Origin: an uncultured Candidatus Saccharibacteria bacterium
GTDB taxonomy: Bacteria > Patescibacteriota > Minisyncoccia > Ryanbacterales > 2-02-FULL-48-12
DNA: 64,000 nt
Assembly: GCA_964479945.1 (NCBI GenBank)
Contig: CAYZNS010000006.1
Location: 1,107-65,106 of the forward strand
Reading direction: 5' to 3'
Shown here in pieces: positions 12,360 through 60,865 of the stretch; within the stretch, counting starts at the first letter, position 1; the number at the start of each line of letters is the position of its first letter. The notes beneath the pieces were generated by a model, which worked only from the letters and a program-made list of their open reading frames with translations, had not been told where the DNA came from and made no database searches. The translations under genes were made by a program, and so were the position numbers.

Positions 12360-12438
12360 ACACCTCCTTTTTGGTACTCAAAGATTTGCGGTGATTATAT
12401 AGCAAGATACGCGACTTGTCAATACCACTCTTCCCATT

Positions 12439-12519
12439 CCGGATGTGCCAAGCCAAGCTACCCACAATTCCGTCTATACACGGAATGTGTGAAGCTCGGC
12501 TAGTCACAATCCTGGCGCC
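12439..12519. repeat. Hairpin repeat family A copy (GGATGTGCCRAGCCRAGCT-loop-AGCTCGGCTAGTCACAATCCTGGCGC)
   Basis: Shares both arms with copies at 17395, 34932 (inverted), 53057 and the 23983-24298 composite. Confidence 0.7.
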
Positions 12520-17388: not shown

Positions 17389-17394
17389 CATTTT

Positions 17395-17466
17395 CCGGAC
17401 GTGCCGAGCCGAGCTATCTCCCGGTACAACCGTGGATAGAGCTCGGCTAGTCACAATCCTGGCGCT
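17395..17466. repeat. Hairpin repeat family A copy
   Basis: ggacgtgccgagccgagctatctcccggtacaaccgtggatagagctcggctagtcacaatcctggcgc. Confidence 0.7.
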
Positions 17467-17516
17467 TGCTTGAATTTTAAACGTTCTTCGTTACACGTTT
17501 TACGTTCTACGAACTT

Positions 17517-22254: not shown

Positions 22255-23982
22255 ATGGATTGGAAACAATTTAACCAAATACTAACAGACCTCGGCTATT
22301 CCGAGAGTGATCGCGAATTCATATCGCAGGCTTTTTCTTTCGCCCGGAATGCTCATGAAGGACAGAAGCGCGCATCCGGCGAGCCGTATTTTACCCATTT
22401 AGCAAACGTCGGCGCATATATAGCGGAGATGAAGCTGGACGCGCATACGATAGCGGCCGCCCTTTTGCATGACGTACTGGAAGACTGCGCCGTGCCGCAG
22501 GAAGAGCTCGCGCGCCGTTTTGGAGAAGATACGGCATTTCTTGTTGAGGGTGCCACAAAACTTGGCACCGTGCGGTACCGCGGCATACAGCGCAAAGTTG
22601 AGTCGCTGCGCAAAATGTTTCTTGCAGTGGCCCAAGACGTGCGTGTAGTCCTTATCAAACTTGCCGACCGCCTGCACAATATGCAGACAATCCAATATCT
22701 TCCGCCGAAAAAACAACAACGCATCGCAACTGAAACGCTGGAGATCTATGCGCCTATTGCGTACCGCCTCGGCATGGGCGGCATGAAAGGCGCGTTGGAA
22801 GACCTCGCGTTTCCTGTTACGAATCCGGACGAATACGCATGGGTATGCCGCGAAGTGAAACACCGTGTACCGGAAGGCGAACAGTATCTCCGAGAAGAGG
22901 TAAAACCAGCGCTGGAAGAATTCCTGCATGCGGACGGCATACACCCTATTGCCATTGATTTTCGTAAAAAACATCTCTATAGCTTATGGCAGAAACTGCT
23001 TCGGTACAATATGGACTTCGGCCGCATTACGGATCTCCTTGCCATGCGCGTTATTGTAGATACTGTTGAGGATTGTTATCAGACGCTTGGCATCATTCAT
23101 CAACTCTGGAAGCCGCTTCCCGGCCGCATCAAGGATTACATAGCGCTTCCAAAACACAATGGCTACCGAAGCCTGCACACCACCGTGTTCTGCGGTGAAA
23201 ATAAAATAACGGAGTTCCAGATACGAACGCAGGAGATGCACGACGAAGCGGAGCGCGGCGTTGCCGCGCACTGGATGTACACGGAAACCGGCAAGCCGAA
23301 ACGAGGAGCGGCCGTGGAGCGGCAAACTGCATGGATACAAAAACTCTCCGCATGGCAGCAGGAGGTGGGCGCGGCTGAAGACGATGATGAATTTTTAGAA
23401 TCCTTAAAGATAGATTTCTTCAAAGACCGCATTTTCGTCTTGACGCCGAAAGGAGAAGTAATAGACCTCCCTGCTGGGGCAACGCCCGTTGATTTTGCGT
23501 ATGCAATACACTCAGAAATTGGGGACCATATGATGGGGGCCAAGGTAAACGGCAAACTCTCACCCTTTGACCGCGAGCTCGCCTCCGGCGAAACAATAGA
23601 AATTCTCACGCAAAAAAATAAAAAACCGAACGCCGAGTGGCTTTCGTTCATAAAAACGTCGCTCGCCCGCAACCGCATACGTGCCGCCGTCCGTAAAGAG
23701 CCAGAGGGCGCTTCTTCAGGCGCCACCCGCAAAAAGCAGCATCAGCAATATCAATGCGTCATTACCGGCCGCGACCGCGTGGGCTTGCTCAAAGATATAT
23801 CCGCGATATTTTCCGAATTCCGCATTAACATTCAGCACATCGCCATGAATACGAAGAATAAACAGCAATATCCGGATATCGTCATATCGTTTCAGGCACG
23901 CGATGAGCGGCAAGTGCACAGCGTCGCCACGCGCCTCAAAGGTGTCCCTGATATTGAAGAAATTGCAATGAAACGGGTGTAG
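22255..23982 (+). CDS. rel: RelA/SpoT-family (p)ppGpp synthetase/hydrolase (HD + synthetase + TGS + ACT domains)
   Basis: HD motif LLHDVLED. Synthetase core RVIVDTVEDCY...KDYIALPKHNGYRSLHTTV. TGS block IFVLTPKGEVIDLPAGATPVDFAY. C-terminal ACT-like region. Confidence 0.85.
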   Translation: MDWKQFNQILTDLGYSESDREFISQAFSFARNAHEGQKRASGEPYFTHLANVGAYIAEMKLDAHTIAAALLHDVLEDCAVPQEELARRFGEDTAFLVEGATKLGTVRYRGIQRKVESLRKMFLAVAQDVRVVLIKLADRLHNMQTIQYLPPKKQQRIATETLEIYAPIAYRLGMGGMKGALEDLAFPVTNPDEYAWVCREVKHRVPEGEQYLREEVKPALEEFLHADGIHPIAIDFRKKHLYSLWQKLLRYNMDFGRITDLLAMRVIVDTVEDCYQTLGIIHQLWKPLPGRIKDYIALPKHNGYRSLHTTVFCGENKITEFQIRTQEMHDEAERGVAAHWMYTETGKPKRGAAVERQTAWIQKLSAWQQEVGAAEDDDEFLESLKIDFFKDRIFVLTPKGEVIDLPAGATPVDFAYAIHSEIGDHMMGAKVNGKLSPFDRELASGETIEILTQKNKKPNAEWLSFIKTSLARNRIRAAVRKEPEGASSGATRKKQHQQYQCVITGRDRVGLLKDISAIFSEFRINIQHIAMNTKNKQQYPDIVISFQARDERQVHSVATRLKGVPDIEEIAMKRV

Positions 23983-24298
23983 GTGACTAGCCGAGCTCTA
24001 TCCCGGTGCAACCGCGGATGGATATGGATATCTCATCCAGAAAACGCATCATGTCATTCCCGCGTAGGCGGGAATCCAGTTGTCCGCCCGAGGCGGATCA
24101 GCATCCGGATGAAAAAACATATATACCTTCAATGGTAATGGATCCCGCATCAAGTGCGGGATGACAAATTATGTCGCATGTGGTGCGGATTCATAATGTT
24201 TTATCTATAGCCGGGCTCAGCACCGGAAATGCTTACCGGTGCCGTATTCCGGAATGTGCCGAACCCCGGTGGAACCTGAATTAGTCACAACCTTGCAC
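23983..24298. repeat. Composite ~315-bp copy of repeat family A with internal hairpins (ATTCCCGCGTAGGCGGGAAT, CCCGCATCAAGTGCGGG)
   Basis: Left end is GTGACTAGCCGAGCTCT, the inverted family-A arm. Right end has CCGGAATGTGCCGAACC ... TAGTCACAACC. Confidence 0.6.
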
Positions 24299-27180: not shown

Positions 27181-27253
27181 AATGAATTATGAAGATAGAA
27201 TTATGAATTATGGGAAAAAATCTTGTTCCATAATTCCTGATTCATAATTCATC
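27181..27253. repeat. Palindromic element family I (GAATTATGAA ... TTCATAATTC) in the parA-parB intergenic region
   Basis: aatgaattatgaagatagaattatgaattatggg...ccataattcctgattcataattcatc. The same motif class is inserted in tsaD at 59752-59832. Confidence 0.6.
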
Positions 27254-27276: not shown

Positions 27277-27305
27277 ATATGTTCGAAACGCAGTTTTGAA
27301 CATAT
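27277..27305. promoter_or_regulatory. Imperfect 13-bp-arm palindrome ATATGTTCGAAAC-GCA-GTTTTGAACATAT between parA and parB (candidate parS/operator)
   Basis: Seen directly. Related palindromes TGTTCGAAAC-N3-GTTTCGAACA occur in the family-G repeats. Confidence 0.3.
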
Positions 27306-29774: not shown

Positions 29775-30386
29775 ATGTTCGATAAATTTATAAAATTCTA
29801 CGAGCGAACAATACGAAAAATGTGGCACATTCGTGCCGGCGGCACTTTACGTTCGCTGAAAGGCACGCTCGTTGAGACGATGGCCGAGGAGATGGTTTTA
29901 CTCGCATGGAAAAATATCGGCGGCAAATCTTCGCGCATCAAAATCAACAAAACAAAATATCCTATCAGTGATGGAAGGGGAAATGTTTATAAGCTGTCCC
30001 AAGATAAACAGGTTTATATTGATGATGAATTTGTGCTGTCAATCGAGTGTAAGGCATATGCAGAGGTCGCGATGTATAAACGTATATTAGTTGATGCCTT
30101 TTTGCTCAAAAAGCATTTTCCAAAACTCAAATTCTGCCTTTTCCAATTAGAAAGTATGCTTGGCGGTGATTACTCCATTGCCGTTGATCATCCGAACGAA
30201 AGCCCATCGGTCAAAGTTCTTGAGCATCATTTTCCAAATCTCGACATTGAGATCATCACTATGCTGGATGGAGAACGAAACATCAAAGGGGAAATACATA
30301 AAAAGCAGTTTTATAAACCACTTCGTCCCGAAAGATTAGACCACGCAATCAAATACTTTGAGCGCGCATTAAAAGAGCATCTCTAA
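29775..30386 (+). CDS. putative type II restriction endonuclease (PD-(D/E)xK fold)
   Basis: YIDDEFVLSIECKAY gives D...E-C-K. The ORF is translationally coupled to the C gene and convergent with the MTase (4-nt stop overlap). AT-rich. Confidence 0.5.
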   Translation: MFDKFIKFYERTIRKMWHIRAGGTLRSLKGTLVETMAEEMVLLAWKNIGGKSSRIKINKTKYPISDGRGNVYKLSQDKQVYIDDEFVLSIECKAYAEVAMYKRILVDAFLLKKHFPKLKFCLFQLESMLGGDYSIAVDHPNESPSVKVLEHHFPNLDIEIITMLDGERNIKGEIHKKQFYKPLRPERLDHAIKYFERALKEHL

Positions 30387-31885
30387 AATAACTTCGCCGG
30401 AATTTCCTTTATTCGTTTCTCGGAGATTTTGCAGTATTTTGGTGAGATATCTATTCCGATATATTTTCTGCCTGTTTCTGCGGCGCAAAGTGTGGTTGTT
30501 CCCGCGCCGTTGAACGGATCAAGTACAATATCGTCTTGATAGCTAAAGAGTTTCATTAGTCGCGTTGCTAACTCCTTTGGAAACATTGCAGGATGATCAT
30601 ATTCTTTCATGTTTCGTTCGGGAGCGATGGACCATTTTGCATAAACCCATTTCTTGAATTCGTCGCCTGTTATATCGGCTTTTGACGAGTCGCCAGCCTT
30701 TTTGTGTGTATCTTTTGAGAAAACTTCAACAAATTCCCATGTGTATTTTAGATATGGCATACTAGGGCTTTTCCAACTGCCCCATGCAGTATACTTGCAG
30801 TTATAGTTATTTTTCTCCCACAAAATTTCTCCCTTCCAGATCAACCCATGATTAAGTAGTTGTTTTGACATCAAATGATGTGTCGGAATGTAATCTGAAA
30901 ACAACGGCTGCACGTTAAGGCAGAGCCGCCCTCCGGGTTTTAGAATGCGCGCGCACTCTTTCCAAATTGCGTCTATCTTCTTAAAATACTCGTCCCAGTG
31001 AATCGCGTCATTTTTCTCATCGTCTTTATATTCTAGGCCGAAATTATACGGTGGAGATGTAATGATAATATCAATCGAACCAGTTGGGATTTTACGCAAA
31101 ACTTCTTCACTGTCGCCACATATAATTTTGTCTGTAAACTTCTCAATGCCATTTGCTTGTGTAACCGCAAAAGCTTCTTTTTGAAATTTTGTGCCGCCCC
31201 GTGCTCTTTCTTTCGCCTCTCTATTTTTGACTTTTCTTTCTCGATTAAGAAGTTTTGCGTCTGGATAAATTTCTACTGGAGACATAAAACCGCCATCACG
31301 AATAACATCAAGCACTATGCCCTGAATTGAAACATCCCGCCCATTTCTAAAAATAAGTGGCTCCATAGTTTTGTTTGCCGGCTGTAAGCGGATATACTCC
31401 CTCTCTTTGTAAAATTTCTTTAAGGTTGCTTCGTGATTGTCGATGAGAGCTACTACCTTTTGTCCGTTCTCGGCTGTTTCCTGCTGACGCACCAAAACTA
31501 TATCGCCATCATTTATATTTTCATCAACCATGCTACTGCCGACTACACGGAGAGCATAAACTTCTGATGAAGAAGGGATTTTACTTTTTGGGACAGCGAT
31601 CATTTCCTTGTCTTGTATTGCTTCGATTGGTTGTCCGGCGGCAATAGTCCCCAAAAGAGGAATTTTTACCATTGTTTCACGACCAAATGCTTCAATAGAG
31701 CGCGGTTTATTTTCTTCTTTAGACAAAAGTCCTAAATCGCGGAGTTTTGAGACATGAAAATGAGCCGTAGAAACGGATGAGAGTTTTAATTTCTTGCGTA
31801 TCTCGTCAAGAGAGGGAGCGTATCCTTTGCGCCCCTGATAATCGGTTATGAAATCGAGAGCTTGTTTTTGCCTTTTTGTTACCAT
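30383..31885 (-). CDS. Fusion protein: complete LexA-type repressor (wHTH + Ala-Gly site + S24 peptidase Ser/Lys dyad) joined to an N4/N6 DNA methyltransferase
   Basis: N-terminal LexA DNA-binding domain at aa 1-65. Cleavage site LLGTIAAGQPIEA with A83-G84. Peptidase motifs VVGSSMVDENINDGDIVLV (Ser118) and EATLKKF (Lys156). MTase motif IV IIITSPPY. MTase motif I VLDPFNGAGTTT, at the C-terminus. Confidence 0.8.
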   Translation of the reverse strand: MVTKRQKQALDFITDYQGRKGYAPSLDEIRKKLKLSSVSTAHFHVSKLRDLGLLSKEENKPRSIEAFGRETMVKIPLLGTIAAGQPIEAIQDKEMIAVPKSKIPSSSEVYALRVVGSSMVDENINDGDIVLVRQQETAENGQKVVALIDNHEATLKKFYKEREYIRLQPANKTMEPLIFRNGRDVSIQGIVLDVIRDGGFMSPVEIYPDAKLLNRERKVKNREAKERARGGTKFQKEAFAVTQANGIEKFTDKIICGDSEEVLRKIPTGSIDIIITSPPYNFGLEYKDDEKNDAIHWDEYFKKIDAIWKECARILKPGGRLCLNVQPLFSDYIPTHHLMSKQLLNHGLIWKGEILWEKNNYNCKYTAWGSWKSPSMPYLKYTWEFVEVFSKDTHKKAGDSSKADITGDEFKKWVYAKWSIAPERNMKEYDHPAMFPKELATRLMKLFSYQDDIVLDPFNGAGTTTLCAAETGRKYIGIDISPKYCKISEKRIKEIPAKLF

Positions 31886-34882: not shown

Positions 34883-34931
34883 AAGAGTAATCGCGAATAA
34901 TGCGAATTAAGGCGAATATACGAATAGAATA

Positions 34932-35005
34932 TGGCGAACAAGCGCCAGGATGTGACTAGCCGAGCTCTGCACATGAGCGAAGCGAGATGTAAATAGCTCG
35001 GCTCG
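34932..35005. repeat. Hairpin repeat family A copy (inverted orientation)
   Basis: gatgtgactagccgagct...agctcggctcggcacatccgg. Confidence 0.7.
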
Positions 35006-46843: not shown

Positions 46844-47257
46844 AATGATATTTCGTATTGCTTATAACTTTTTTATAACCGCATCTACAATGTCAACTAT
46901 ACTTTACAATATGCTAAAGCAAAATACGAATGCAAAAAGAAAAAGAGCTGGTTAGGCTCTTTATTGTTATAAAAAACATCGGGTGCGCAATCCCAACCAG
47001 AAGCATCTAGAATTCCGGTTGGGTTCACATGCTTTTTCAGTGCCCATGCGTTATAACACGTTCAACTGCATGCGAGGCAATTGCGCTTCACCTCATAACT
47101 CTCAACAATCTCCCACCAAAATCTTCCGTTCTATTTGTGCAACACCGAGTGTTGCACTGTCAAACACTTAGTGTTTGACAGTGTTTGACAAGATCAAAAA
47201 CTTTGATGAGAATTCTTTCTCTTGTATAGCACTGCAAACCGTGATATCCTGCGCACA

Positions 47258-47434
47258 TGCCAACAGTTTCAACAAAAACAAAAAACGTACGGACACCACA
47301 GCCCTTAAAAATGCCAAAGCAGCAATTACCGGAAAGCATGTTAAAAGCGGCAGGTCTTTTACGAAACAAACGAAAAGCGCTTGAACGCCATCTTCAAATA
47401 GTCCGCAAAGAATGGAGTCGCAGTTCCAAGTAAT
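47258..47434 (+). CDS. small antitoxin-like ORF (58 aa) immediately upstream of vapC
   Basis: MPTVSTKTKN...LKAAGLLRNKRKALERHLQIVRKEW. Its stop is 1 nt before the vapC ATG. Below the ORF-track size cutoff. Confidence 0.35.
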
Positions 47435-47806
47435 ATGACAATAGATGCCAATATTGTCATTGCATACCTCGCGGGTGAGCAGTCTGTTACACAAACCATT
47501 ATTTCTTGGCGTACACAAAACACGCCGCTTTTTCTATCTTCTGTAGCAGAATCAGAAGTGTTATCGTTTTCCAAATGGACGGATGAAGAACTTCTTCTTA
47601 CCGAACAATTTCTGCAAGAAAATTTTACAACCATACCCTTTGATAGAACTCTTGCAAGATTTGCCGCCGAAATTCGGCGTACCACAAGAATGAAATTTCC
47701 AGATGCCGCAATCGCAGCAACTGCTGTTTTTACTCACTCTGCCGTTGTTACAAGAAATGTCCGAGACTTCAAACGTATTCAAGGACTTCAAGTTATAACC
47801 ATTTAA
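47435..47806 (+). CDS. vapC: PIN-domain toxin VapC
   Basis: MTIDANIVIAYL...AESE...AAIAATAVF...VTRNVRDF carries the PIN acidic residues. Confidence 0.8.
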   Translation: MTIDANIVIAYLAGEQSVTQTIISWRTQNTPLFLSSVAESEVLSFSKWTDEELLLTEQFLQENFTTIPFDRTLARFAAEIRRTTRMKFPDAAIAATAVFTHSAVVTRNVRDFKRIQGLQVITI

Positions 47807-47807
47807 A

Positions 47808-47905
47808 AGAACTCCCACCAAAATCTTCGCCTCACAAATTGTTCAAAGCTTAGCTTTGAACAATCGAAAACTTTGGTAGGAGTCCGATTATAGTAATCGG
47901 ACACA
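47808..47905. repeat. Repeat family G copy (CTCCCACCAAAATCTTC ... TGTTCAAAGC-TTA-GCTTTGAACA ... GAAAACTTTGGTAGGAGTCCGATT)
   Basis: Shares both ends and a central palindrome with 49738-49838. A partial copy sits at ~47100-47125. Confidence 0.65.
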
Positions 47906-47954
47906 ATTGATCCCGACATTTTTTAACGCGGTTGCCGGTTTCCGCGGTTAAAAG

Positions 47955-48317
47955 TTAATCTCGTTCTAGGAACATTTCATTCTCTAGCTTTGCCCAGAAT
48001 TCCCGCACCTCATCCTCGGAGATGCTTTTCGCACGTCTTACAATCAACCTCCTTTCTTGCACAGTTAATCCTTCCGGGTAGATCCGCATAGCATGCAGAC
48101 CATACCACGGGCCAAACCCCTTCACCTCTATCCCCAGCTTTTCCGCCGCTAACAAACATGCCCCCACCTCTCTCCGGTTCCGCACCCCATCCTCTCCCTC
48201 ATTGTAGGACCGCTTATCGAACACATCATCGGTAATTTTCATATCTCCTCCTTCTTTTCTAGTTAGGAATTTGGATACAACGAGCACATAAATACTCGTC
48301 ATTAAACCACCAATCAT
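47955..48317 (-). CDS. hypothetical protein (GC-rich cassette gene 4)
   Basis: ORF; 4-nt overlap with the upstream gene. Confidence 0.5.
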   Translation of the reverse strand: MIGGLMTSIYVLVVSKFLTRKEGGDMKITDDVFDKRSYNEGEDGVRNRREVGACLLAAEKLGIEVKGFGPWYGLHAMRIYPEGLTVQERRLIVRRAKSISEDEVREFWAKLENEMFLERD

Positions 48318-48859
48318 TCCTCCTTTGCTTTTCTGTTGGCTAACCAGCGTTTTGTCGCCTCCTTCGCTTTTACCTTGTTTTCAGGCTTCGCATGCCACCG
48401 AGCACTTCTGCGTTTCTGGCTCTCCTTCGCCCGCACCTCCCTACACATATCACAGAATTTGCGAGTGGAAGGAACGAGATTCAAGCAAGAAGTAGTGCCA
48501 CAACGACGGAGCACCGGTGGCGGAAGCGGAGGCTGTTCGTTCACCAATTCTCTCCAAATTTTTTTGAAGCCGCGGGCACGCAATGTTTCTAACGCGGCGT
48601 TGGAAATATCTTGTTGAAAATCAATCGGATTTTCCCGGTAGTGGGCGATAACCCACTTGCAGTTACCGGGGTACCGACGACCCGCCGCTTCCACTGCGCG
48701 CCGCCATGAACCAAAAACGCGATGCGCCGCCATTACCACCACATCCCCCAAATGCCTGCGTGCTTCCGTGTAGCGAAGATGCGCATCGGGGATAGACTGT
48801 ATGAACCGAACAACCGTCTGTTCATTCCATCCTTCGAGGGGAACAATCTTTCTTTTCAT
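48314..48859 (-). CDS. hypothetical protein with Cys4 cluster (RCGTTSC...CDMC) and basic C-terminal tail
   Basis: ORF only. Confidence 0.5.
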   Translation of the reverse strand: MKRKIVPLEGWNEQTVVRFIQSIPDAHLRYTEARRHLGDVVVMAAHRVFGSWRRAVEAAGRRYPGNCKWVIAHYRENPIDFQQDISNAALETLRARGFKKIWRELVNEQPPLPPPVLRRCGTTSCLNLVPSTRKFCDMCREVRAKESQKRRSARWHAKPENKVKAKEATKRWLANRKAKEE

Positions 48860-48931
48860 TTCAGAACTCTCCTTTCTTCAAAAAAGAAATCTGGGCTTCG
48901 GTGGGCTTCGTTCCTGACATACTTTCTCTCC

Positions 48932-49360
48932 TTAACTTCTTTTCGCTGGCGTAAGAGATTCGCCGACATCACTTGTTGGGTCCGGGTTGTTCCAGACTTT
49001 CTCCATGAAGCCGAAATGAACAGTCTTGGGATTACGTCGTGAATCTAAACAGTCAGTGGTTGGATACATGTAGACATGGTATACGGCCGAAAGTCCGAAT
49101 ATGCCGTCTTGCCGCTTTTGAGGGTGGTTTTCAAAGAAACCAAAGCTGCACCCTTTGAGAGCTACATCCATGCAATGAGATAATCGGGCTACCACATATA
49201 CGAAGCCGTCCACATGACTGCGGATATACTCCGCAAGACCACCACCTGAAAACTCAACGGGATCCTTCACTACATCCACATTCTCGCCGTGAAGTGTGCG
49301 GATTGCTGTCTGCTGCGCAGACGACAAATCATGTCGAGAAATCCAATAAACTTTTGCCAT
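48932..49360 (-). CDS. hypothetical protein
   Basis: ORF only. Confidence 0.5.
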   Translation of the reverse strand: MAKVYWISRHDLSSAQQTAIRTLHGENVDVVKDPVEFSGGGLAEYIRSHVDGFVYVVARLSHCMDVALKGCSFGFFENHPQKRQDGIFGLSAVYHVYMYPTTDCLDSRRNPKTVHFGFMEKVWNNPDPTSDVGESLTPAKRS

Positions 49361-49737
49361 GCTTCACCTCCGTGCTTTATAAATTTGTAAAATTTTAAAG
49401 GTACAACTTCCATTCGAAGCTACTGCGCGTCGTGCCGTAATAGCTTCGAAAAGAAGGGCGAAGGGTTTTGCGCCTTCGCCACAGTAAGGCGGGAATTATC
49501 CTCCTTCACTGGACTCGTGATTGGCTTCCCGCGCGCTTTATGCGCACCAACCACGCGTTCCTGCCTCCTAAAACAGAAACACCAGTTCCCTCTTATAACC
49601 GACCCTAAATTGATCGGCGAGGTTTCCCGGATAGTACGCTGGGAGGAGCGTCGCTCACCGCACGATGTACGGCGTCCGGGAACTCTTGCGTGCTACAAAG
49701 TGTAGCTAAACACAAGAGTGGAGGATAAAATTTTGGG

Positions 49738-49838
49738 AAAGAACTCCCGCCAAAACTCTCGATATGCATTGTTCGAAACTCGGTTTCGAACAATCGAAAA
49801 CTTTGGTAGGAGTCCGATTCTTGGGTTGAATCGGACTG
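49738..49838. repeat. Repeat family G copy containing perfect palindrome TGTTCGAAAC-TCG-GTTTCGAACA
   Basis: aactcccgccaaaactctc...ttgttcgaaactcggtttcgaacaatcgaaaactttggtaggagtccgatt. Confidence 0.65.
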
Positions 49839-49885
49839 GTTTGGTGGGTCCGGCAGGGAGGCAACTGCCAGACCCGGTTAGGAGG

Positions 49886-50530
49886 TTACGCGCCATGGTC
49901 GGCCCAGCCAACGCGCCGGTCCTTGTCCCGACGACCCCCGTTGTGGACTTTTTTGCTCTTTGGCTTGGAAGCCGCGGGGCTAGCAAAGTCCCGACCCTTA
50001 CCCTCAAACGGGATGGGGGCCTTCAACGGAGCCGGTTTCGGTTCACCGGCGGCGGAGGACTTGTTGGCAAGAGGGGTGGGGCGTTTGCCGTAGTCGCCAA
50101 CAAAAGCATCCACACCTTTGTTGCCGGCAATCCTCTCCTCCAGAAACCGCACGGAGTTGAGGTACCGGTAGCAACGGACACCACGATCCTCCAGAGCGTT
50201 GGCGTGCTTGCGGCACACCAGGAAGCTCCTTAGATCCTCCGGCACGGCCTTCTTCCCCAACTTTGCCTCCACGAAGTTAAGGTTGGGAACGATTGCCTGC
50301 TCTTCCCGTATCCCCCCGCCCTTTTCTCCACAAAGAGCACAGGAGAACTGTACAACCGGCGACTGTTCGGCAGGTTTCGGCAGTTCAATCTTGCCGAGGA
50401 CCCGACCGTTCGTCTCGACTGTCTGTTGTTCGGCCTCCAATTTGTCGGCCGCGGGCGCGGTCAGAACAGCGCCGTTTGCAACGGTTTCGATGGTCTCGGG
50501 GGTGCCAGTGGTGATCACATCTGTGGTCAT
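49886..50530 (-). CDS. hypothetical protein (GC-rich; CALCGEKGGG motif)
   Basis: ORF only. Confidence 0.5.
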   Translation of the reverse strand: MTTDVITTGTPETIETVANGAVLTAPAADKLEAEQQTVETNGRVLGKIELPKPAEQSPVVQFSCALCGEKGGGIREEQAIVPNLNFVEAKLGKKAVPEDLRSFLVCRKHANALEDRGVRCYRYLNSVRFLEERIAGNKGVDAFVGDYGKRPTPLANKSSAAGEPKPAPLKAPIPFEGKGRDFASPAASKPKSKKVHNGGRRDKDRRVGWADHGA

Positions 50531-51535
50531 AAAAACCTCCTGAAAAATTTGTACCAGACGAATTCGTCTGGGTAGTTTAAAGAACTTTCAAAAATTTTCC
50601 TCCCGCCACAGACGACCACCCTATGCCAGAACTTTTTTTGTCCTTATGATCGTCTTTGGTAGGAAAGGAAACTCATCAGCGTATTTATTCGAAATGATTC
50701 GAAATGGCCCGCTTACATGCCTTTAACGTGGGTTAGCTTCCTTACAGCCCCACGACACATTCAATGTTTTCTCTGCACGATAATCCCCCGCCGCCGCGGC
50801 TGCTTCCCCGTTGGAACAAGAAGCATCTGCCACTCAAACGCGGCCTGCTTCGAGTCCGCCTCTTTCCGAGGCAAACCGTTCCAACTGAACCCTCCCTTAC
50901 GAAGGATGGTGTTAGCCACCTTGTGCAGTTCGTGAGACATGTTACCTCCTTTTTCTTTTTTGTCTCTTATCCCTCCCGAATGTGCGGGCCGTGATGGGAG
51001 ACTAGACAGCCCGCATACTCGAGAGAGAAAAACCTTTTCAAATGCAACTATTCGCCATTATACTCGGCTATAAAATTTTGTCAAGTGTTCATGACATATA
51101 ATACCATTATATTTCAGAAATATGTTGTAATATAAGGATATTTTACATGTTTTATTTAATATGTATTTCTAACATATTTTGTTATACAACGCATGTCTGT
51201 AAAAAATATTTCTGTCAGTGGCATTTGACAAATATTTGAGTACGTGCTATGTTTCAGGCGGGTGCACCTTGAACAAGAATCTTAAACCGGCGGCTCTCGG
51301 CCGAGAACGAGAGCGCAAATCTGGTTTCAGGGGGATTTTAAACGAAAAAGGGAGCTCTGGATTCCCGCCTCCGCGGGAATGACACTCTGATGGTGCGCCT
51401 GCTTGGTTCATTTTGCTCCCACTCCCAAAAAAGAAATCCTCCTGAAGAATAGGAGGACAAGATGGGCGGACATTAATCTAATTTAATGATTCTCTTGTCT
51501 AAATACGACAAAGGCCGCTTTAGCAACAAAGCGGC

Positions 51536-52285
51536 CTAAATTTTTTCTGCGGCCATCCAAAGAATCTCAAATATACCCCGAAAAGAATTAGCTATTTCCT
51601 TGTGACTAATAATGGCGCCTGAAATATTTCCTTTTAATGCGGCAATGGCAACATTGTCATCAAATATTGTAATATCAGCAGAAAACGGCATCTTTTTCGG
51701 TGAGATATACCTAGTTTCGCGTAACATTTTCTCATCTTTTCTTGGGTAAACAGAATTTTCCGTGGAAGTATATATAAGGCGTGATTTAATTCCTTTTTTT
51801 ACGCGCCGCGGCGTATAAGTATTTTTATGATCCGGAAATACAGAGAACACTTCATCAACTGGTGATATGGCCAATATCTCTTTTCGTTTTGCTTTTAAAA
51901 AATCCTCCTGCATCTTTAACAAACCCTCCTTCCCCTCAAAATACCGCACTACCGGCTTCTCTTCCGCCAAATCAAACATCGCTTTTAACTCCGGCAGCAC
52001 GCTTTTTAACTCCTCCTGCTTCTGCTCCAGTTCTTTCTTTTCATGTCCCAGCAAATACTCCAACTGCTCCGGATCTTCGGCGATGTAGAGCTGTTTTTTG
52101 CCTTTGGTCTGCATGCTGACTAACCCCTTTTTCTTTAAGGATTCAATTTGTACATACGCCGTGGGGCGGTTGATGGCGGCTTTGGCGGCAATTTCAAGCA
52201 CGGACGAGGGCCCAAGCTCTAGCATAGCCAAATACACTTTGGCTTCATTGTCTGAAAGACCGATATGTTTTAATTGGGTAAGCAT
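51536..52285 (-). CDS. TrmB-family transcriptional regulator
   Basis: N-terminal TrmB HTH LSDNEAKVYLAMLELGPSSVLEIAAKAAINRPTAY. Confidence 0.7.
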   Translation of the reverse strand: MLTQLKHIGLSDNEAKVYLAMLELGPSSVLEIAAKAAINRPTAYVQIESLKKKGLVSMQTKGKKQLYIAEDPEQLEYLLGHEKKELEQKQEELKSVLPELKAMFDLAEEKPVVRYFEGKEGLLKMQEDFLKAKRKEILAISPVDEVFSVFPDHKNTYTPRRVKKGIKSRLIYTSTENSVYPRKDEKMLRETRYISPKKMPFSADITIFDDNVAIAALKGNISGAIISHKEIANSFRGIFEILWMAAEKI

Positions 52286-52943: not shown

Positions 52944-53056
52944 AAACGTTTTACTATTATATATATGCTTTACATTTTATCAAGAAGTAAAATAATGTCA
53001 AGAGCGGTATTTGTAAGAGCTCACAAACTCGGATAATTGTGTAACATTTGCTATCT

Positions 53057-53128
53057 CGGATGTGCCAAGCCGAGCTCCACATCGCCCTACGGGCGTGTGT
53101 AGAGCTCGGCTAGTCACAATCCTGGCGC
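53057..53128. repeat. Hairpin repeat family A copy
   Basis: cggatgtgccaagccgagct...agagctcggctagtcacaatcctggcgc. Confidence 0.7.
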
Positions 53129-53207
53129 TTACTCAAGTTTGTGAGTTCTTACCGGTACTTTCTTGAAAATTATAAGGGGAGGCGATTGCTCGTCTCCCCT
53201 TTTTTCT

Positions 53208-53375
53208 AATGCACAACCGGCATCTGCACAATCGGGGCGTCGGAGTTTGCCTCCGCATACTTCTCAAGCTTTTGCCGAATCTCCGCGGCCCAGCGCTGTG
53301 CCTTTTCCGCATCTACTTCTCCCGCATCCAGCTTTCGCTGGATTTCATCCAAAAAATGCTCAAAAAAAGTCATAA
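53208..53375 (-). CDS. small hypothetical protein (55 aa, MTFFEHFLDEIQRKLDAGEVDAEKAQRWAAEIRQKLEKYAEANSDAPIVQMPVVH)
   Basis: ORF below the track cutoff; helical, charged. Confidence 0.25.
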
Positions 53376-53710
53376 AAAAACCTCCTTAAAGTACATTCAC
53401 TAAACTCTCGAATGCCCTGATTTCAAGACCTTGGTGAATGGGAGGAGAACGATCTTTATTTGTGTTCTCCCCCGTGGCAGGATTTTATTGGGCTTGTTTT
53501 GTATAAGCCCTGCGGTTACCTGCCGTCCGCTTGTCTTTTGTCGGAGACCTATGCGTTCACTCTCACCTTTCTCGTCTGATGCGCCCGCGATTGCTAGTAC
53601 CTCCCAAAATTTTTCAACGCGAAGCGTTTGATGTTTTTTCCGGCCTATTCGATAGCCGGGTTAGAGGTTAATTCAAAAAAATTGATATGACACTCACCCA
53701 TCCTTTCTAT

Positions 53711-54321: not shown

Positions 54322-54831
54322 TTATTTCGTAGCATTAACAATCTGTCCAACAATGGAGTCAATCCCCTCCGACAGATCCAGTAACGTGCCACGTCTAGAG
54401 GGATCAGTCTCCCCTTCCTCCGCCTCGTACCCCTTTGCAAAGATCTCCTTAATCTTGGACAAGAGGCCTTCCGCCTCTGTCCTGCGGGGGAGTTCCTTGC
54501 TGTAGAGCTCGTCCCCGAAATAAGCCTTGTAAAAAGGGACCCCCACAACATCCTCTATCTCGGTCGGCGTCATTGGCCAAGCTATATGGCCTACAAACGC
54601 CCCACGAAATGGAGCAATCCGTACGACGTGACCCTGATCGGACGAACGGATATAGGGCTTGACGAGCCAAGCCTTCTTTTTCATAGCTGCCGTAGTCGCT
54701 GAAAACTCCATTTTACACCTCCTGTGTGGAATTATTGAACTCAAAGTACTAAAAAATTTGAGAGAAGAAACAGAGACGCGATGTGTAGCGCGTACACATC
54801 TGACCTTGAGCGGCCCTTTCTGTTTTTTCAT
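54322..54831 (-). CDS. hypothetical protein (GC-rich; start may be the internal Met at ~54711)
   Basis: ORF only. Confidence 0.4.
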   Translation of the reverse strand: MKKQKGPLKVRCVRATHRVSVSSLKFFSTLSSIIPHRRCKMEFSATTAAMKKKAWLVKPYIRSSDQGHVVRIAPFRGAFVGHIAWPMTPTEIEDVVGVPFYKAYFGDELYSKELPRRTEAEGLLSKIKEIFAKGYEAEEGETDPSRRGTLLDLSEGIDSIVGQIVNATK

Positions 54832-54845
54832 TGCTCAAACTCCTC

Positions 54846-54912
54846 TCATCAAAGCTTTCCAAGAGCTACCCCATGTATTATATAAAAGGGTTCTGGAAAG
54901 CTTTGATGAGAG
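54846..54912. promoter_or_regulatory. Inverted repeat CTCATCAAAGCTTTCCAAG / CTGGAAAGCTTTGATGAG with ~25-nt loop, followed by G5T5
   Basis: Seen directly between the 54322 gene start and brnT. Confidence 0.35.
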
Positions 54913-55128
54913 GGGGTTTTTCCGGATACCCCCCAGACACGGATTTGGAAATCCGAGATTTATAATATTAGAAGTATAAGATCACCCCCTTTTTTTGATT
55001 TGCAAGAAGTATAGCATGTTTGGTTGTCTGTGTCAAGCCCTGCACGGATGGGCTAAAAGCTGTGGACAAATATTGACAAAACATATCTATTGTCTATACT
55101 TATACCATAAGAGCTTGTTCGACATGAT

Positions 55129-59530: not shown

Positions 59531-60865
59531 ATGATAATTACCGCAATAGAAACATCGTGCGATGAGACGGCAATTGCCGTTATTCAAACCGCCGGCGGAG
59601 GACGCGGCTTTCGCGTACTCTCCAATTTGGTGCTTTCGCAAGCTAATCTTCATGCCGAATGGGGCGGCGTGGTACCGAATTTGGCTAAACGAGAACACGA
59701 AAAAGCTTTGGTACCCATGCTTTTACAGGCATTGGACGAAACAGGGCTTTTTGAATCAAGAATCATGAATTATGAATCAAGGAAAAAAAACAAAACCCAT
59801 AATTCAAAATTCATAATTCATAATTCAATTCTAGAAAAGAATGAAGAACTTAGAAAATCTTTTGAAGCGCATATTACAAGCATCTCGCGCCCAAACATAG
59901 ATATAATCGCCGTAACGCAGGGGCCGGGGCTGGAACCGGCATTATGGGTAGGCGTTAATTTCGCGCGGGCGCTCTCGGCGCTGTGGAATATTCCGTTGTT
60001 AGGTGTAAACCATATGGAAGGACACATCGTCTCGGCGAGAATCGCCGAGACGGACGCAAAACGTAAAACGCAAAACGTAAAACTACAACTCAAAACTCAA
60101 AAACCTAAAACCTATCACCTAAAACCTATCACCTGCCCCGCGCTTGCATTGCTGGTCAGTGGTGGTCACACGGAATTGGTACTTATGAAAAAGCCGCTGC
60201 ACTATGAAATTATCGGCGAAACGCGGGATGACGCGGCAGGCGAAGCGTTTGATAAGGTGGCACGGCTTCTCGGCCTTCCCTATCCTGGAGGACCCGCCAT
60301 AGCTCAGCAAGCTGATCTATGGAATTTCCAATTTCCAATCCGCCAGCTGGCGGACAATTTCCAAACAAATTCCAAAATCAAAAATCAAAATTCCAAACAA
60401 AAATTACGAGTTACGGATTACGAGTTACGGATTACGCTCCCTAGGCCGATGATAAACACAAAAGACTTTGACTTTTCGTTTTCCGGCTTAAAGACTGCCG
60501 TTCTTTATCTCATACGAGACTTAGAAAAATGCGGTGAAAACATCAAAAAACTTCGTCCTGCCATCTGCAAAGAATTTCAAGATGCCGTGGTAGATGTGCT
60601 TGTTGCAAAAACCATCCGCGCGGCAAAGGAATATAAGGCAAAAACGATTCTTCTTGGCGGCGGCGTCGCCGCAAATAAGGAACTCCGCAAGCGCCTTGCG
60701 GAAGAAATTAAAACTCAGCTACCACGTTCTACGTTCCACGTTCCACGTTCTACTCTTACGGGTGACAACGCGCTCATGATAGCCGTCGCGGCAATGGAAC
60801 GCGCAAAACAAGCAAAAAAAACAACATGGAAAACGCTCAAACCGGACGCAAATATGCGATTTTGA
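59531..60865 (+). CDS. tsaD: tRNA N6-adenosine threonylcarbamoyltransferase TsaD (Kae1/YgjD) with four in-frame low-complexity insertions (~100 extra aa)
   Basis: MIITAIETSCDETAIAV. GVNHMEGHI metal site. LVSGGHTEL. GGGVAANKELR. Confidence 0.9.
   Translation: MIITAIETSCDETAIAVIQTAGGGRGFRVLSNLVLSQANLHAEWGGVVPNLAKREHEKALVPMLLQALDETGLFESRIMNYESRKKNKTHNSKFIIHNSILEKNEELRKSFEAHITSISRPNIDIIAVTQGPGLEPALWVGVNFARALSALWNIPLLGVNHMEGHIVSARIAETDAKRKTQNVKLQLKTQKPKTYHLKPITCPALALLVSGGHTELVLMKKPLHYEIIGETRDDAAGEAFDKVARLLGLPYPGGPAIAQQADLWNFQFPIRQLADNFQTNSKIKNQNSKQKLRVTDYELRITLPRPMINTKDFDFSFSGLKTAVLYLIRDLEKCGENIKKLRPAICKEFQDAVVDVLVAKTIRAAKEYKAKTILLGGGVAANKELRKRLAEEIKTQLPRSTFHVPRSTLTGDNALMIAVAAMERAKQAKKTTWKTLKPDANMRF
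59752..59832 (+). repeat. In-frame insertion 1 in tsaD: palindromic GAATTATGAA/TTCATAATTC element (family I)
   Basis: Encodes ESRIMNYESRKKNKTHNSKFIIHNSIL. Confidence 0.55.
60052..60134 (+). repeat. In-frame insertion 2 in tsaD (AAAACGTAAAACG / CTCAAAACTCAAAA / CCTATCACCTAAAA tandem motifs)
   Basis: Encodes DAKRKTQNVKLQLKTQKPKTYHLKPIT, right after conserved HMEGHIVSARIAE. Confidence 0.55.
60322..60440 (+). repeat. In-frame insertion 3 in tsaD: CAATTTCCAATCCGCCAGCTGGCGGACAATTTCCAAAC + CAAAATCAAAA + (TTACGAGTTACGGA)x2
   Basis: Encodes NFQFPIRQLADNFQTNSKIKNQNSKQKLRVTDYELRITL. Contains perfect palindrome CCGCCAGCTGGCGG. Confidence 0.6.
60721..60755 (+). repeat. In-frame insertion 4 in tsaD: (CCACGTTCTACGTT) tandem motif
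   Basis: Encodes PRSTFHVPRSTL. A similar ACGTTCTTCGTTACACGTTTTACGTTCTACG lies intergenic at 17480-17515. Confidence 0.5.

Follow-up and report, generated by a model that had tools for sequence, protein, structure and literature searches.

In the early and late mRNAs of phage T7, RNase III hairpins between cistrons leave stabilising 3′ hairpins and defined 5′ ends; these sites, which contain an internal loop, belong to one phage. In the rrn operons of E. coli boxB is dispensable, and the boxA of Firmicutes and Mollicutes is of the type GUUCUUUGAAAAC. Short palindromic repeats of the REP/BIME, ERIC and Correia type are transcribed and able to stabilise mRNA. In rrn leaders, boxB is followed by boxA (PMC6614801), and boxA can be searched for with the pattern GYTCTTTAANA (PMC5725501).

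CPR bacteria represent a large, mostly uncultured share of bacterial diversity with tiny genomes rich in orphan genes. Little is understood of the ways in which they take up, arrange and express accessory genes. The repeats analysed here lie in a 64-kb stretch of DNA (the whole of it is called the window below). With moderate confidence, they are regarded as copies of a conserved intercistronic module which acts at the RNA level, separates the small, exchangeable accessory genes of an array that is driven by a promoter and lies behind a TrmB-like regulator, and recurs across CPR/Patescibacteria. Four ORFs in the window would be cassettes of one such array, which is not delimited by the two repeats. 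The original prediction had described these minus-strand ORFs (120, 181, 142 and 214 aa) as a GC-rich cassette between two ~100-bp repeats that may be a transferred module. The ORFs are indeed real (the first one in a probably shorter form of 95 aa), two of them contain Cys clusters, and none has a recognisable domain in the form of a significant Pfam, PHROG or PADLOC match. Two ~100-bp direct repeats are present as well (47806-47905 and 49736-49838; 88% identity over a 52-nt core, mutual nhmmer E 1.5e-13), each with a perfect 10-3-10 palindrome. They do not bracket all four ORFs, as ORF214 is located outside the pair, which encloses three ORFs and a 378-nt ORF-free stretch. An excess in GC exists and is modest (0.518 for the region vs 0.476 as window mean; 7th among 205 windows of 2.7 kb), but it does not extend to all ORFs: ORF142 is average (0.476), only ORF214 stands out (0.60), and housekeeping genes are equally GC-high (parB 0.54, glyA 0.52). 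What holds of the transferred-module idea is that the genes are accessory cassettes, that they lie in a variable region and that repeats mark their junctions; the repeats are not the two ends of one module, as the unit recurs before or after single genes in many CPR genomes.

The array, like the regulator gene in front of it, is encoded on the minus strand. It is headed by a consensus sigma-70 promoter (TTGACA-16-TATAAT, 51057-51084), the only 12/12 match within 46.5-55.5 kb, which is followed by ORF59, unit D, ORF214, unit B, a noncoding stretch, ORF142, ORF181, ORF95 and unit A. The surroundings of this promoter (51255-50857) are conserved with regions downstream of TrmB in two related loci (L027 and L016), and its -35 box is overlapped by a TGTCA-N8-TGACA palindrome. 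Directly upstream, a winged-helix regulator of 249 aa is encoded (51536-52285; Pfam TrmB, E 3.6e-16) that shares 40% identity with a homologue in locus L011. TrmB-like proteins form the largest family common to the hairpin loci, with 13 members in the window and 11 other loci; in these 12 loci the regulator gene is located upstream.

ORF59 (50761-50940), the first small ORF past the promoter, is equipped with a strong Shine-Dalgarno (SD) site, aaggaggtaacATG, and has no family match in Pfam, PHROG or PADLOC. ORF214 (49886-50530) combines a zinc-ribbon-like core (C-x2-C ... C-x2-H, then R-Y-L) with a basic disordered tail; its family is found only in CPR (at least 64 clusters, all hypothetical and CPR-derived) and has members in six hairpin loci. 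Between unit B and ORF142 lies the ORF-free structured stretch (49361-49737), whose minus strand folds with -157.7 kcal/mol at z -8.0 against z -4.7 for the plus strand and, for which no Rfam match and no homologue in the fetched loci was obtained. ORF142 (48932-49360) belongs to a ~120-aa family that occurs in varied contexts in CPR genomes (54 homologous clusters, E down to 8e-54, all unnamed). AF2 models of the ORF214 core (pLDDT 80) and of ORF142 (pLDDT 87, alpha/beta fold) had no significant match in the PDB, nor had that of ORF142 in BFVD. ORF181 (48314-48859) is a near-orphan with a single homologue (56% identity) among 5.8 billion clusters; it has a Cys4 cluster and a weak HNH-repeat-like N-terminus (Pfam HNH_repeat E 0.0016, below cut-off). 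ORF120 (47955-48317), also a near-orphan, has one real homologue (72% identity) among 1.84 billion representatives. As an SD site, gaaggaggagatATG, precedes codon 26, its true start is likely at 48242, which corresponds to the 95 aa of ORF95. On the plus strand, between units C and A, a vapB-like gene and a PIN (VapC) gene form a toxin-antitoxin pair (47257-47806; Pfam PIN E 1e-11) that is absent from the syntenic relative L045.

A search with the covariance model R1 yielded five copies of the module in the window, every one on the minus strand and together spanning 47.1-54.9 kb. Unit A (47779-47909; 42.7 bits, E 5.7e-10), which contains the first of the two direct repeats, lies ~50 nt past the stop of ORF95/120 and consists of the hairpins H1 (47882-47902) and H2 (47813-47881), the latter with an inner palindrome (47840-47862), and the boxA-like motif GUUCUUU (47806-47812). 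Its minus strand folds with -48 kcal/mol (z -8.9) vs -36.7 for the plus strand. Unit B (49710-49843; 37.4 bits, E 2e-8), containing the second repeat, is positioned ~50 nt past the stop of ORF214 and has the same parts (H1 49812-49836, H2 49745-49811, inner palindrome 49770-49792, GUUCUUU 49738-49744), with a minus-strand fold of -45.3 kcal/mol (z -8.0), which again surpasses that of the plus strand. Both units are atypical in having an extra palindrome in the H2 loop, no H3 hairpin and no gene directly after them. Unit C (47102-47211; E 0.034), already listed in the original prediction as a partial third repeat, is a diverged copy that contains only the H2 arms and no H1. The palindromes of its enlarged loop, TGCAACAC-CGA-GTGTTGCA and TGTCAAACAC-TTA-GTGTTTGACA, overlap a plus-strand promoter-like site of vapBC (TTGACA-17-GAGAAT, 47185-47213), and its downstream flank is 90% identical to 14725-14849 of L045. 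Two copies had been overlooked. Unit D (50568-50696; 20.3 bits, E 0.0017) is a diverged copy upstream of ORF214 with GUUCUUUAAAC at 50579-50585 and is homologous to 9627-9703 of L045, while unit E (54819-54945; 30.7 bits, E 1.7e-6) is a perfect 25-nt inverted repeat which heads a second small-gene operon (ORF129, the exonuclease-like ORF175 and ORF55) and is homologous to 6995-7084 of L045 (84%).

The similar palindrome that had been reported near parA was confirmed: the window contains exactly three instances of the pattern TGTTCRAARCNNNGYTTYGAACA (at 47840, 49770 and 27280), where 0.06 would be expected. The isolated 23-nt copy, TGTTCGAAACGCAGTTTTGAACA (27280-27302), is located 5 nt past the parA stop, resembles the inner palindrome of unit B and lacks H2 arms. 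The inner palindrome of unit B is also present at 15048-15070 of L045, and this element is confined to the lineage of the window. The 23-nt palindromes share only TGTTC...GAACA with parS and are 7 bp longer, and the 16-bp parS palindrome TGTTNCACGTGNAACA has no match in the window at up to two mismatches.

Read in gene sense, the module starts with a variable GC-rich hairpin (H1), which is followed by the long hairpin H2 and by GUUCUUU, sometimes with the short third hairpin H3 between the latter two; in relatives, an SD site and a start codon lie ~20 nt beyond the motif. Among 64 units, 58 have H1 immediately next to H2, 47 have an H3 and 41 a GTTCTTT-like motif. The conserved stem of H2 has the sequence UCCYAYCAAAGUUUU / AARRUUUUGRYGGGA. 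In an alignment of 53 sequences, 97.3% of its cells are paired (slid-partner controls: 41-66%) and compensatory changes are found at 10 of 18 pairs; as the instances were gathered by a pattern covering both arms, the paired percentage is inflated, whereas the compensatory changes are unaffected. RNAalifold recovers the helix independently, and one G·U pair is conserved in 49 of the 53 sequences. The strong conservation of the stem sequence is a feature that boxB does not explain. G·U pairs are distributed asymmetrically, with gene-sense stems being perfect when G·U is allowed and the other strand being mismatched; in locus L030, for example, one strand has no mismatch and nine G·U pairs and the other nine mismatches and no G·U pair. 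Single-stranded DNA hairpins tolerating G·T would show an identical strand asymmetry. Matches of the covariance model are full length on the sense strand (23-92 bits) and partial on the antisense strand. The covariation of H2 together with the restriction of G·U pairs to the gene-sense strand suggests a single-stranded, probably RNA-based function. In addition, the inner palindromes of units A and B differ by compensatory changes in both arms, which is predicted for a hairpin and not for a dimeric operator.

The motif at the end of the module has the consensus WGTTCTTT[G/T/C]ARRA and is tied to the start of a following gene, being present in 31 of 40 units with such a start vs 10 of 24 without (p 0.007). 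Its distance to the ATG, in units with a detected downstream start, has a median of 20 nt and a mode of 19 nt, and it is retained where the H2 sequence has diverged. GUUCUUU matches the 7-nt core of boxA, the target of NusB/S10 through which RNA polymerase is helped past terminators, and is a candidate boxA site by its sequence. In its placement it resembles boxA as well, as it lies in gene sense, 3′ of a 12/12 promoter, with a hairpin preceding the motif on the presumed transcript. The leader that precedes the ORF142 homologue of L008/L009 contains a perfect GTTCTTTAATA ~25 nt past a promoter, and GCTCTTTAAAA is present in L034. Of 49 core motifs (41 from the 64 units and eight more from L045), only 12 fit GYTCTTTRA and a single one fits the full gamma-proteobacterial boxA pattern. 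Neither the window nor the fetched loci contain an rrn leader or spacer for comparison; in L029, the rRNA part is limited to the 3′ end of 23S and a 5S gene. As the purine run after the motif is largely an SD site, the fixed spacing of 19-20 nt to the ATG could equally mean that the motif is a translation-initiation or standby element.

A pattern scan of 185,579 species genomes returned 32 loci, of which 28 were confirmed by the covariance model. The module loci all derive from CPR MAGs or from contigs of probably misbinned CPR origin, and three to eight co-oriented copies are often present between small orphan genes. Searches of the window and 36 related loci against Rfam 15 at gathering score had no matches other than tRNA, rRNA, a group I intron and one LOOT RNA, none of them at the units; at E up to 10 a unit gave only miRNA-type noise, and searches of the literature did not turn up the hairpin module. 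The syntenic relative L045 keeps the flanking genes RluA and ORF302 and shares between them only the TrmB-like gene and ORF214, which indicates that the locus is hypervariable. Homologues of ORF142 and ORF181 elsewhere have different neighbours.

From these observations we infer polycistronic transcription and an action of the module at the RNA level. The array would be transcribed as one mRNA from the promoter at 51084-51057. GUUCUUU could be a boxA-like loading site for NusB/S10, with the RNA GUUCUUUGA as putative CPR NusB-S10 target, and together with the preceding hairpin it may form an rrn-type nut-like signal (boxB, then boxA) that would allow RNA polymerase to resist termination while it transcribes foreign or poorly translated cassettes. 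Alternatively, this signal might tune the ribosome-binding site next to it. Another potential role of the long perfect helix is that of a hairpin for processing and stabilisation, comparable to the RNase III sites that separate T7 cistrons. The repeated modules of 40-130 nt may, as a side effect, provide homology for the gain, loss and shuffling of cassettes. A more far-reaching possibility, which can be put forward only tentatively, is a cassette platform of CPR/Patescibacteria that combines a TrmB-like regulator, a strong promoter and exchangeable small genes, each with a three-hairpin and boxA-like RNA module. Such modules might represent an undescribed class of structured RNA and the platform an integrase-less analogue of integrons, in which Nus-type antitermination and processing signals, reloaded at each junction, would make foreign arrays expressible. 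The zinc-ribbon ORF214 family, which is conserved adjoining the TrmB-like gene in Parcubacteria-type arrays, might provide a module-binding factor, comparable to phage N or Com.

It appears unlikely that the units are instead attC-like single-stranded DNA hairpins of an integron-like system with GTTCTTT as core site and a recombinase encoded elsewhere. The arrays do consist of promoterless, co-oriented, small orphan cassettes with one site each, conserved at its ends and variable in its centre, and their content varies between strains and between conserved flanks, with toxin-antitoxin cassettes interspersed. GTTCTTT flanks some units on both sides and is fused to stop codons as TAGTTCTTT, the comparison of L016 and L036 places mosaic breakpoints inside the units, and large serine recombinases are encoded near the arrays in L013, L015 and L024. 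However, these three, all of the serine type, are the only recombinases in ~30 related loci; no tyrosine recombinase, integrase or HUH enzyme is present in the 64-kb window or in most loci, and Pfam scans of 40 ORFs (the larger ORFs of the window and those around the array) detected no catalytic domain of an integrase, recombinase or transposase. The R''/R' consensus (RYYYAAC / GTTRRRY) is absent, with the H2 base UCCYAYCAAAG / UUUUGRYGGGA fitting neither box, and the flanking GTTCTTT copies are direct and not inverted repeats. Moreover, the stems are near-perfect (97% paired) without the conserved bulges or extrahelical bases that define attC, and the fixed motif spacing of 19-20 nt to start codons suits an expression signal.

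That the module is a selfish or neutral mobile repeat (MITE, REP/BIME or ERIC-like), which spread through intergenic regions of CPR without a role in the arrays, is improbable. Such an origin would fit arms that look like the conserved terminal inverted repeats of elements whose interiors vary, copies that stand alone in ordinary surroundings (L026, L029, L037 and L040), near-identical units in MAGs labelled as different CPR classes (L023/L025) and assemblies that break at the repeats. It does not fit units whose orientation is always that of the flanking genes, with a fixed position relative to stop codons, SD sites and ATG, nor a stem that is upheld by covariation across very divergent copies and has strand-specific G·U pairs. 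The strong association with TrmB-like genes and the absence of a transposase or RAYT partner from the loci argue against it as well.

An exclusive function as attenuators or intrinsic terminators, with a hairpin and the U-rich GUUCUUUU stopping or dampening transcription between cassettes and causing polar expression, is quite improbable. In units of the window and L045 type, the base of H2 is GC-rich and immediately followed by GUUCUUUU, and in other lineages H3 overlaps the GGGA of H2, which would allow alternative pairing. However, the 20-55 nt between a unit and the next start codon leave no room for a promoter, and the array would be silenced if termination were efficient. In L003, L037 and L029, genuine GC-rich intrinsic terminators are located behind the terminal unit, which implies that H2 is not itself the operon terminator, and a generic terminator has no need for a conserved stem sequence. 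A scan for intrinsic terminators did not call the units, as their loops are too long for the tool. A role as double-stranded DNA sites, whether ParB/operator-like as suggested in the original prediction or for TrmB-like or antitoxin regulators, is very improbable: the palindrome past parA starts and ends like parS (TGTT...AACA) and others overlap the vapBC promoter-like site and the -35 box of the array, but canonical parS is absent, the H2 arms are spaced by 4 to >70 nt and change compensatorily, the strand asymmetry would be meaningless for duplex DNA, and the inner palindrome is restricted to a single lineage.

R1 and the pattern TCCCRYCAAAA-N12-42-AAAACTTTGRTRGG provide a single signature by which hypervariable arrays can be recognised in Saccharibacteria and in several lineages of Parcubacteria. 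The favoured reading as an intercistronic RNA module additionally supplies a candidate regulator, the TrmB-like protein, and a mechanism open to testing, in which boxA-like Nus loading, RNA processing or both would take part. Should this mechanism hold, Nus/boxA control would extend beyond rRNA, suhB and CRISPR leaders to entire arrays of protein-coding cassettes, and a portable expression module would become available for organisms in which genetic work is just becoming possible. If the units were recombination sites instead, they would define a new cassette-capture system.

With rrn and lambda nut sites, the module has in common a hairpin that is followed by a short motif, whose GUUCUUU core fits the boxA pattern (PMC5725501), and with rrn leaders the order of hairpin and boxA (PMC6614801). 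As at the BoxA sites that precede suhB and other genes, the motif is on the presumably transcribed strand, past a strong promoter and at most 50 nt from start codons. Unlike nut sites, which occur once per leader or spacer, the module stands before many genes of one operon, and its conservation concerns the stem of the hairpin instead of the loop. SD sequence mostly takes the place of the 3′ half of boxA (AACAA/GAAAAC). Integrons and CALINs (attC clusters without integrase) likewise have co-oriented, mostly orphan small ORFs that are expressed from a single promoter upstream, and each cassette has an imperfectly conserved hairpin whose centre varies between conserved ends. Toxin-antitoxin pairs are scattered among these cassettes, and the content differs between relatives. 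The arrays described here differ in that they lack IntI and have a TrmB-like regulator as platform gene, and their modules have neither RYYYAAC/GTTRRRY boxes nor extrahelical bases, favour wobble pairs on the mRNA-sense strand and are placed just 5′ of the next ribosome-binding site with a fixed spacing. The RNase III sites of T7 are also related long hairpins between small-gene cistrons, whereas the predicted helix of the module is part of the chromosome, pairs almost perfectly and is conserved throughout a whole radiation. REP/BIME, ERIC and Correia-type repeats share the short palindromic form, the intergenic or intra-operon location and the assembly breaks. The module differs from them by having no RAYT or transposase partner, a strict gene-sense orientation and a fixed spacing to SD site and ATG, and its occurrence is closely tied to a single regulator family and to arrays.

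The two repeats of about 100 bp which, according to the original prediction, bracket a GC-rich cassette of four minus-strand genes are direct repeats (copy A, 47806-47905; copy B, 49736-49838) with a 52-nt core that is 88% identical (nhmmer E 1.5e-13), and each of them includes a perfect 10-3-10 palindrome, a pattern found three times in the 64 kb compared to 0.06 expected occurrences. The four ORFs (ORF214, ORF142, ORF181 and ORF95/120) are present as well, and searches of Pfam, PHROGs and PADLOC with these ORFs and their neighbours yielded no significant match (an HNH_repeat Pfam match with E 0.0016 is below the cut-off). The bracketing applies to only three of them, as the interval from A to B comprises ORF142, ORF181, ORF95/120 and a 378-nt ORF-free stretch, with ORF214 lying outside the pair. 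The GC-content is indeed elevated (0.518 versus a window mean of 0.476, the seventh highest of 205 windows), but the excess is modest; ORF142 has an average GC-content, and parB and glyA are as GC-rich as the cassette region. The repeated unit itself is far more general than a local repeat pair: it is a CPR-wide, covariation-supported module of intercistronic hairpins and a boxA-like motif, which occurs in hypervariable arrays headed by a gene for a TrmB-like winged-helix regulator.

Read in gene sense (minus strand), copies A and B start with a small hairpin, H1 (GUCCGAUU...AAUCGGAC), directly followed by a long hairpin, H2, whose base is formed by CUCCUACCAAAGUUUUCG and CGARRRUUUUGGYGGGAG and whose tip is the palindrome, and the heptamer GUUCUUU is located directly 3' of H2. 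The minus-strand RNAs of A and B fold with -48 and -45 kcal/mol (z -8.9 and -8.0), the plus-strand RNAs with -37 and -42 kcal/mol; the better-folding strand is the sense strand of the ORFs, and C·A mismatches of the plus strand are G·U pairs on the minus strand. A covariance model of the unit found five copies in the window, all on the minus strand and within 47.1-54.9 kb, namely A (E 5.7e-10), B (E 2e-8), E (E 1.7e-6), D (E 0.0017) and C (E 0.034). Copy C (47102-47211) is diverged, having kept the H2 arms with different palindromes in the loop. The third palindrome of the 10-3-10 pattern (TGTTCGAAACGCAGTTTTGAACA, 23 nt, 27280-27302) lies 5 nt past the parA stop codon and closely resembles the tip of unit B; it lacks the H2 arms, and its single wobble pair points to the plus strand, which is opposite to parA. 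Two further repeats were observed in the window. An AT-rich 70-nt repeat (TGAATTATGAAGATAGAATTATGAATTATGGG...) occurs between parA and parB (27183-27252) and ahead of tsaD (59752-59821) and is kept in the related locus L045 (4085-4149). A second, unrelated intergenic family with internal inverted repeats (TTCCGGATGTGCCAAGCCGAGCT ... GAGCTCGGCTAGTCACAATCCTGGCGC) is found at 12431-12530, 17387-17477 and 53013-53152, inverted at 23962-23999 and 34931-34968, and also in L045 (16628-16747).

A relaxed pattern (TCCCRYCAAAA-N12-42-AAAACTTTGRTRGG), scanned in 185,579 species with one genome each, yielded 32 loci, of which 28 were confirmed by the covariance model; an earlier, stricter DNA pattern had given no locus in genome contigs and a single one in metagenome contigs. 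The other four loci (L019, L020, L039 and L044) are chance matches inside ORFs, with poor stems and without a match to the model. All 28 confirmed loci belong to Patescibacteria/CPR MAGs or to small, probably misbinned, contigs, and the groups represented are Saccharibacteria, Zambryski-, Yanofsky-, Kaiser-, Sung- and Niyogibacteria and Minisyncoccia. A search of 2.9 million IMG/VR viral contigs gave no unit match, which leaves a phage origin of the unit unsupported. Rfam searches of the window and 36 loci at the gathering score, and of 46.8-51.6 kb of the window at E values up to 10, returned nothing relevant. The unit is thus new to Rfam, in which no family covers it, and our literature searches found no description of it.

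In total, 64 instances of the unit were collected. H1 is GC-rich, variable in sequence and ends 0-2 nt from H2 in 58 instances. In 47 instances there is a further short hairpin, H3, which begins at the GGGA with which H2 ends. In an alignment of 53 H2 sequences 97.3% of the positions are paired, with compensatory changes in 10 of 18 pairs (77 cells) and one G·U pair kept in 49 sequences, whereas controls with slid partners reached 41-66% pairing and 12-24 compensatory cells. As the collecting pattern required both arms, the percentage of pairing is inflated, but it does not give rise to the independent Y/R covariation. RNAalifold predicted the same H2 helix. The stems are perfect, with wobble pairs, on one strand and mismatched on the other, as in L030 (no mismatch and nine G·U pairs on one strand versus nine mismatches and no G·U pair on the other) and L017 (none and seven versus seven and none). 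Full-length matches to the covariance model (23-92 bits) occur in gene sense only, antisense matches covering the bare hairpin with far lower scores.

The related loci often have three to eight units per 8 kb, placed between small ORFs of the same orientation. The stop codon of the upstream ORF is typically 2-30 nt ahead of H1, and an SD-preceded start codon follows the unit in 40 of 64 instances (17 of 64 in the antisense control), typically 30-55 nt past H2. The array proteins are extremely diverse, and their sole large common family is the TrmB-like regulator (246-280 aa; 13 members, encoded in the window and in 11 other loci), whose gene is usually upstream of the array and in the same orientation where orientations are comparable. 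The 0.6-1.2 kb past this gene are conserved in DNA between loci, including 51255-50857 of the window, and the window's conserved stretch holds a perfect sigma-70 promoter (TTGACA-16-TATAAT, 51084-51057, minus strand), the only one in this region. Inspection of the unit itself revealed no -10 element at usable spacing past the TTGAAA of the 3' arm, which rules out an internal promoter. Past the TrmB-like gene, the transcription unit of the window would therefore consist of the promoter, ORF59, copy D, ORF214, copy B, the 378-nt structured spacer, ORF142, ORF181, ORF95 and copy A; past A follow an inverted vapBC pair and then copy C. A second promoter at about 55036 heads copy E, ORF129, the exonuclease-like ORF175 and ORF55. 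The ORF-poor region past the TrmB-like gene (0.6-1.1 kb; L011 3595-4225, L033 2017-2770, L027/L034) has a DNA identity of 72-76% across genomes and a folding z-score of -4.6; it possibly represents a long structured leader, or else a non-coding RNA. Further long ORF-free stretches of the variable region are located at 53375-53710 and 50941-51535, the latter of which includes a GC-rich segment immediately 3' of the TrmB terminator as well as the array promoter. The 378-nt spacer between unit B and ORF142 (49361-49737, minus strand) folds in gene sense with -157.7 kcal/mol (z -8.0); it matched nothing in Rfam, nhmmer found no homologue among all fetched loci, and a decayed gene or a cassette encoding a non-coding RNA could account for this stretch. 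In a Saccharibacteria MAG a three-unit array is followed, at a distance of about 750 nt, by a LOOT RNA (RF03000, 81 bits; L013 5632-5749).

How variable the arrays are becomes evident from the syntenic locus of Parcubacteria Gr01-1014_29 (L045). The flanks are kept (RluA 83%, ORF302 80% amino-acid identity), but of the genes in the approximately 12 kb that they enclose, only those for the TrmB-like regulator (62%) and ORF214 (67%) occur in both, and about 15 window genes are replaced by at least 12 different small ORFs separated by at least eight units, one of which has the inner palindrome of window copy B. Between L016 and L036 two cassettes differ; the breakpoints are located within the repeated H1/H2 and within a repeat of 28 nt that comprises the RBS and the first codons. 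The original idea of transferred accessory DNA with repeats at its junctions hence fits the array as a whole, but not a single four-gene module. The locus L011 is also syntenic with the window, having a TrmB-like regulator (40% identical), a consensus promoter, a long leader, an ORF214-core homologue (E 7e-9), a hairpin, an ORF142 homologue and a second hairpin; these hairpins share the stem sequence of window H2 with a loop of 4-5 nt. ORF142 has about 54 homologous clusters, none named, and homologues are also located behind an ATP-synthase operon, beside HigB or in other arrays. ORF214 represents a CPR-only family (at least 64 clusters) whose core is Zn-ribbon-like (C...C...C..C/H) and which has an R-Y-L helix; it occurs in six hairpin loci, always together with the TrmB-like gene, and this low number rules it out as an obligatory partner of the unit. 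The models of ORF142 (a small alpha/beta domain, confident with pLDDT 87) and of the ORF214 core (pLDDT 80) have no significant neighbour in PDB or BFVD. Both ORF181 and ORF95 are near-orphans; the single homologue of ORF181 has another gene upstream of it, and the sequence following this homologue is the same as that past window ORF95. Elsewhere in the window, one minus-strand ORF (30383-31885) fuses a LexA DNA-binding domain and an S24 peptidase to an N6/N4 DNA methyltransferase, an unusual architecture, FtsH (6834-10088, minus strand) is split by an intein with a LAGLIDADG domain, 18616-19737 encodes DprA, a processing protein of DNA uptake, and 4444-4917 an isolated HTH fragment that is IS630-like.

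A GTTCTTT-like heptamer was found in 41 of the 64 instances, usually 10-21 nt past H2, but 0 nt past it in the window and L045. Its aligned consensus is WGTTCTTT[G/T/C]ARRA (49 instances), continuing 3' mostly into the SD sequence, and its distance to the ATG has a median of 20 nt and a mode of 19 nt. It is commoner where a gene follows (31 of 40 units versus 10 of 24; Fisher p 0.007) and is kept in L006 and L008 despite a diverged H2 sequence. Upstream ORFs often end in a stop codon fused to the motif (TAGTTCTTT; L024, L030, L031, L041, L026 and L004), this fusion preceding either H1 or the next SD, so that GTTCTTT occurs on both sides of ORFs and of hairpin units.

The most serious rival explanation is that the unit is an attC-like recombination site. 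The logic of the arrays would fit, as would the GTTCTTT copies that lie as direct repeats on both sides of some units and the fusion of stop codons to the motif. However, no integrase is present in the window or in most loci (a scan of 40 window ORFs revealed no intact integrase or transposase), the R''/R' consensus and extrahelical bases are absent, and a start-codon spacing of 19-20 nt better suits an expression signal. Binding of ParB or of an operator protein to the palindromes, as suggested in the original prediction, is disfavoured. Between A and B, each palindrome arm has two changed positions, and these changes are compensatory, which is a mark of base pairing and not of a dimeric operator; the arm spacing is variable, the strands are asymmetric and a canonical parS is absent from the window. 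Yet the inner palindromes of copy C overlap a promoter-like site of vapBC and may be an antitoxin operator. The strict orientation and positioning of the units speak against a selfish repeat of the MITE/REP type. Units acting only as terminators would silence the array, and GC-rich terminators 3' of the last unit in L003, L029 and L037 indicate that H2 does not serve as the operon terminator. Interpretations as a DGR, retron or CRISPR fail for lack of a reverse transcriptase or cas gene and because the copy differences are compensatory and not adenine-specific.

The G·U asymmetry in gene sense, the strict co-orientation and the fixed position relative to translation signals together suggest that the unit acts single-stranded, most simply as RNA. 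GTTCTTT is the core of boxA, the binding site of NusB/S10, and the heptamer of the unit, which resembles boxA over these 7 nt, is a candidate boxA. A perfect GTTCTTTAATA lies about 25 nt past a promoter (TTGACT-17-TATACT) in the leader of one ORF142 homologue, and one unit of L034 contains the E. coli-type GCTCTTTAAAA. Given this consensus, placing and leader examples, we propose that the units are nut/rrn-like modules, which would load Nus factors at every junction, so that the polymerase could stay termination-resistant through foreign, weakly translated cassettes. Alternatively, the unit might modulate the adjacent ribosome-binding site, as at suhB. Hairpins of the T7 RNase III type serve in processing and stabilising, and the long perfect H2 helix could additionally be of this kind. 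As for the proposed Nus-loading modules, an rRNA-spacer boxA is presumably where the Mollicute primer GTTCTTTGAAAACTGAAT is located. This primer contains the GTTCTTT string (PMC3019172), and the boxA search pattern of Baniulyte et al. is GYTCTTTAANA (PMC5725501). In rrn leaders a boxB hairpin precedes boxA (PMC6614801), and this order of hairpin and then boxA is the same as that of hairpin and heptamer in the unit.
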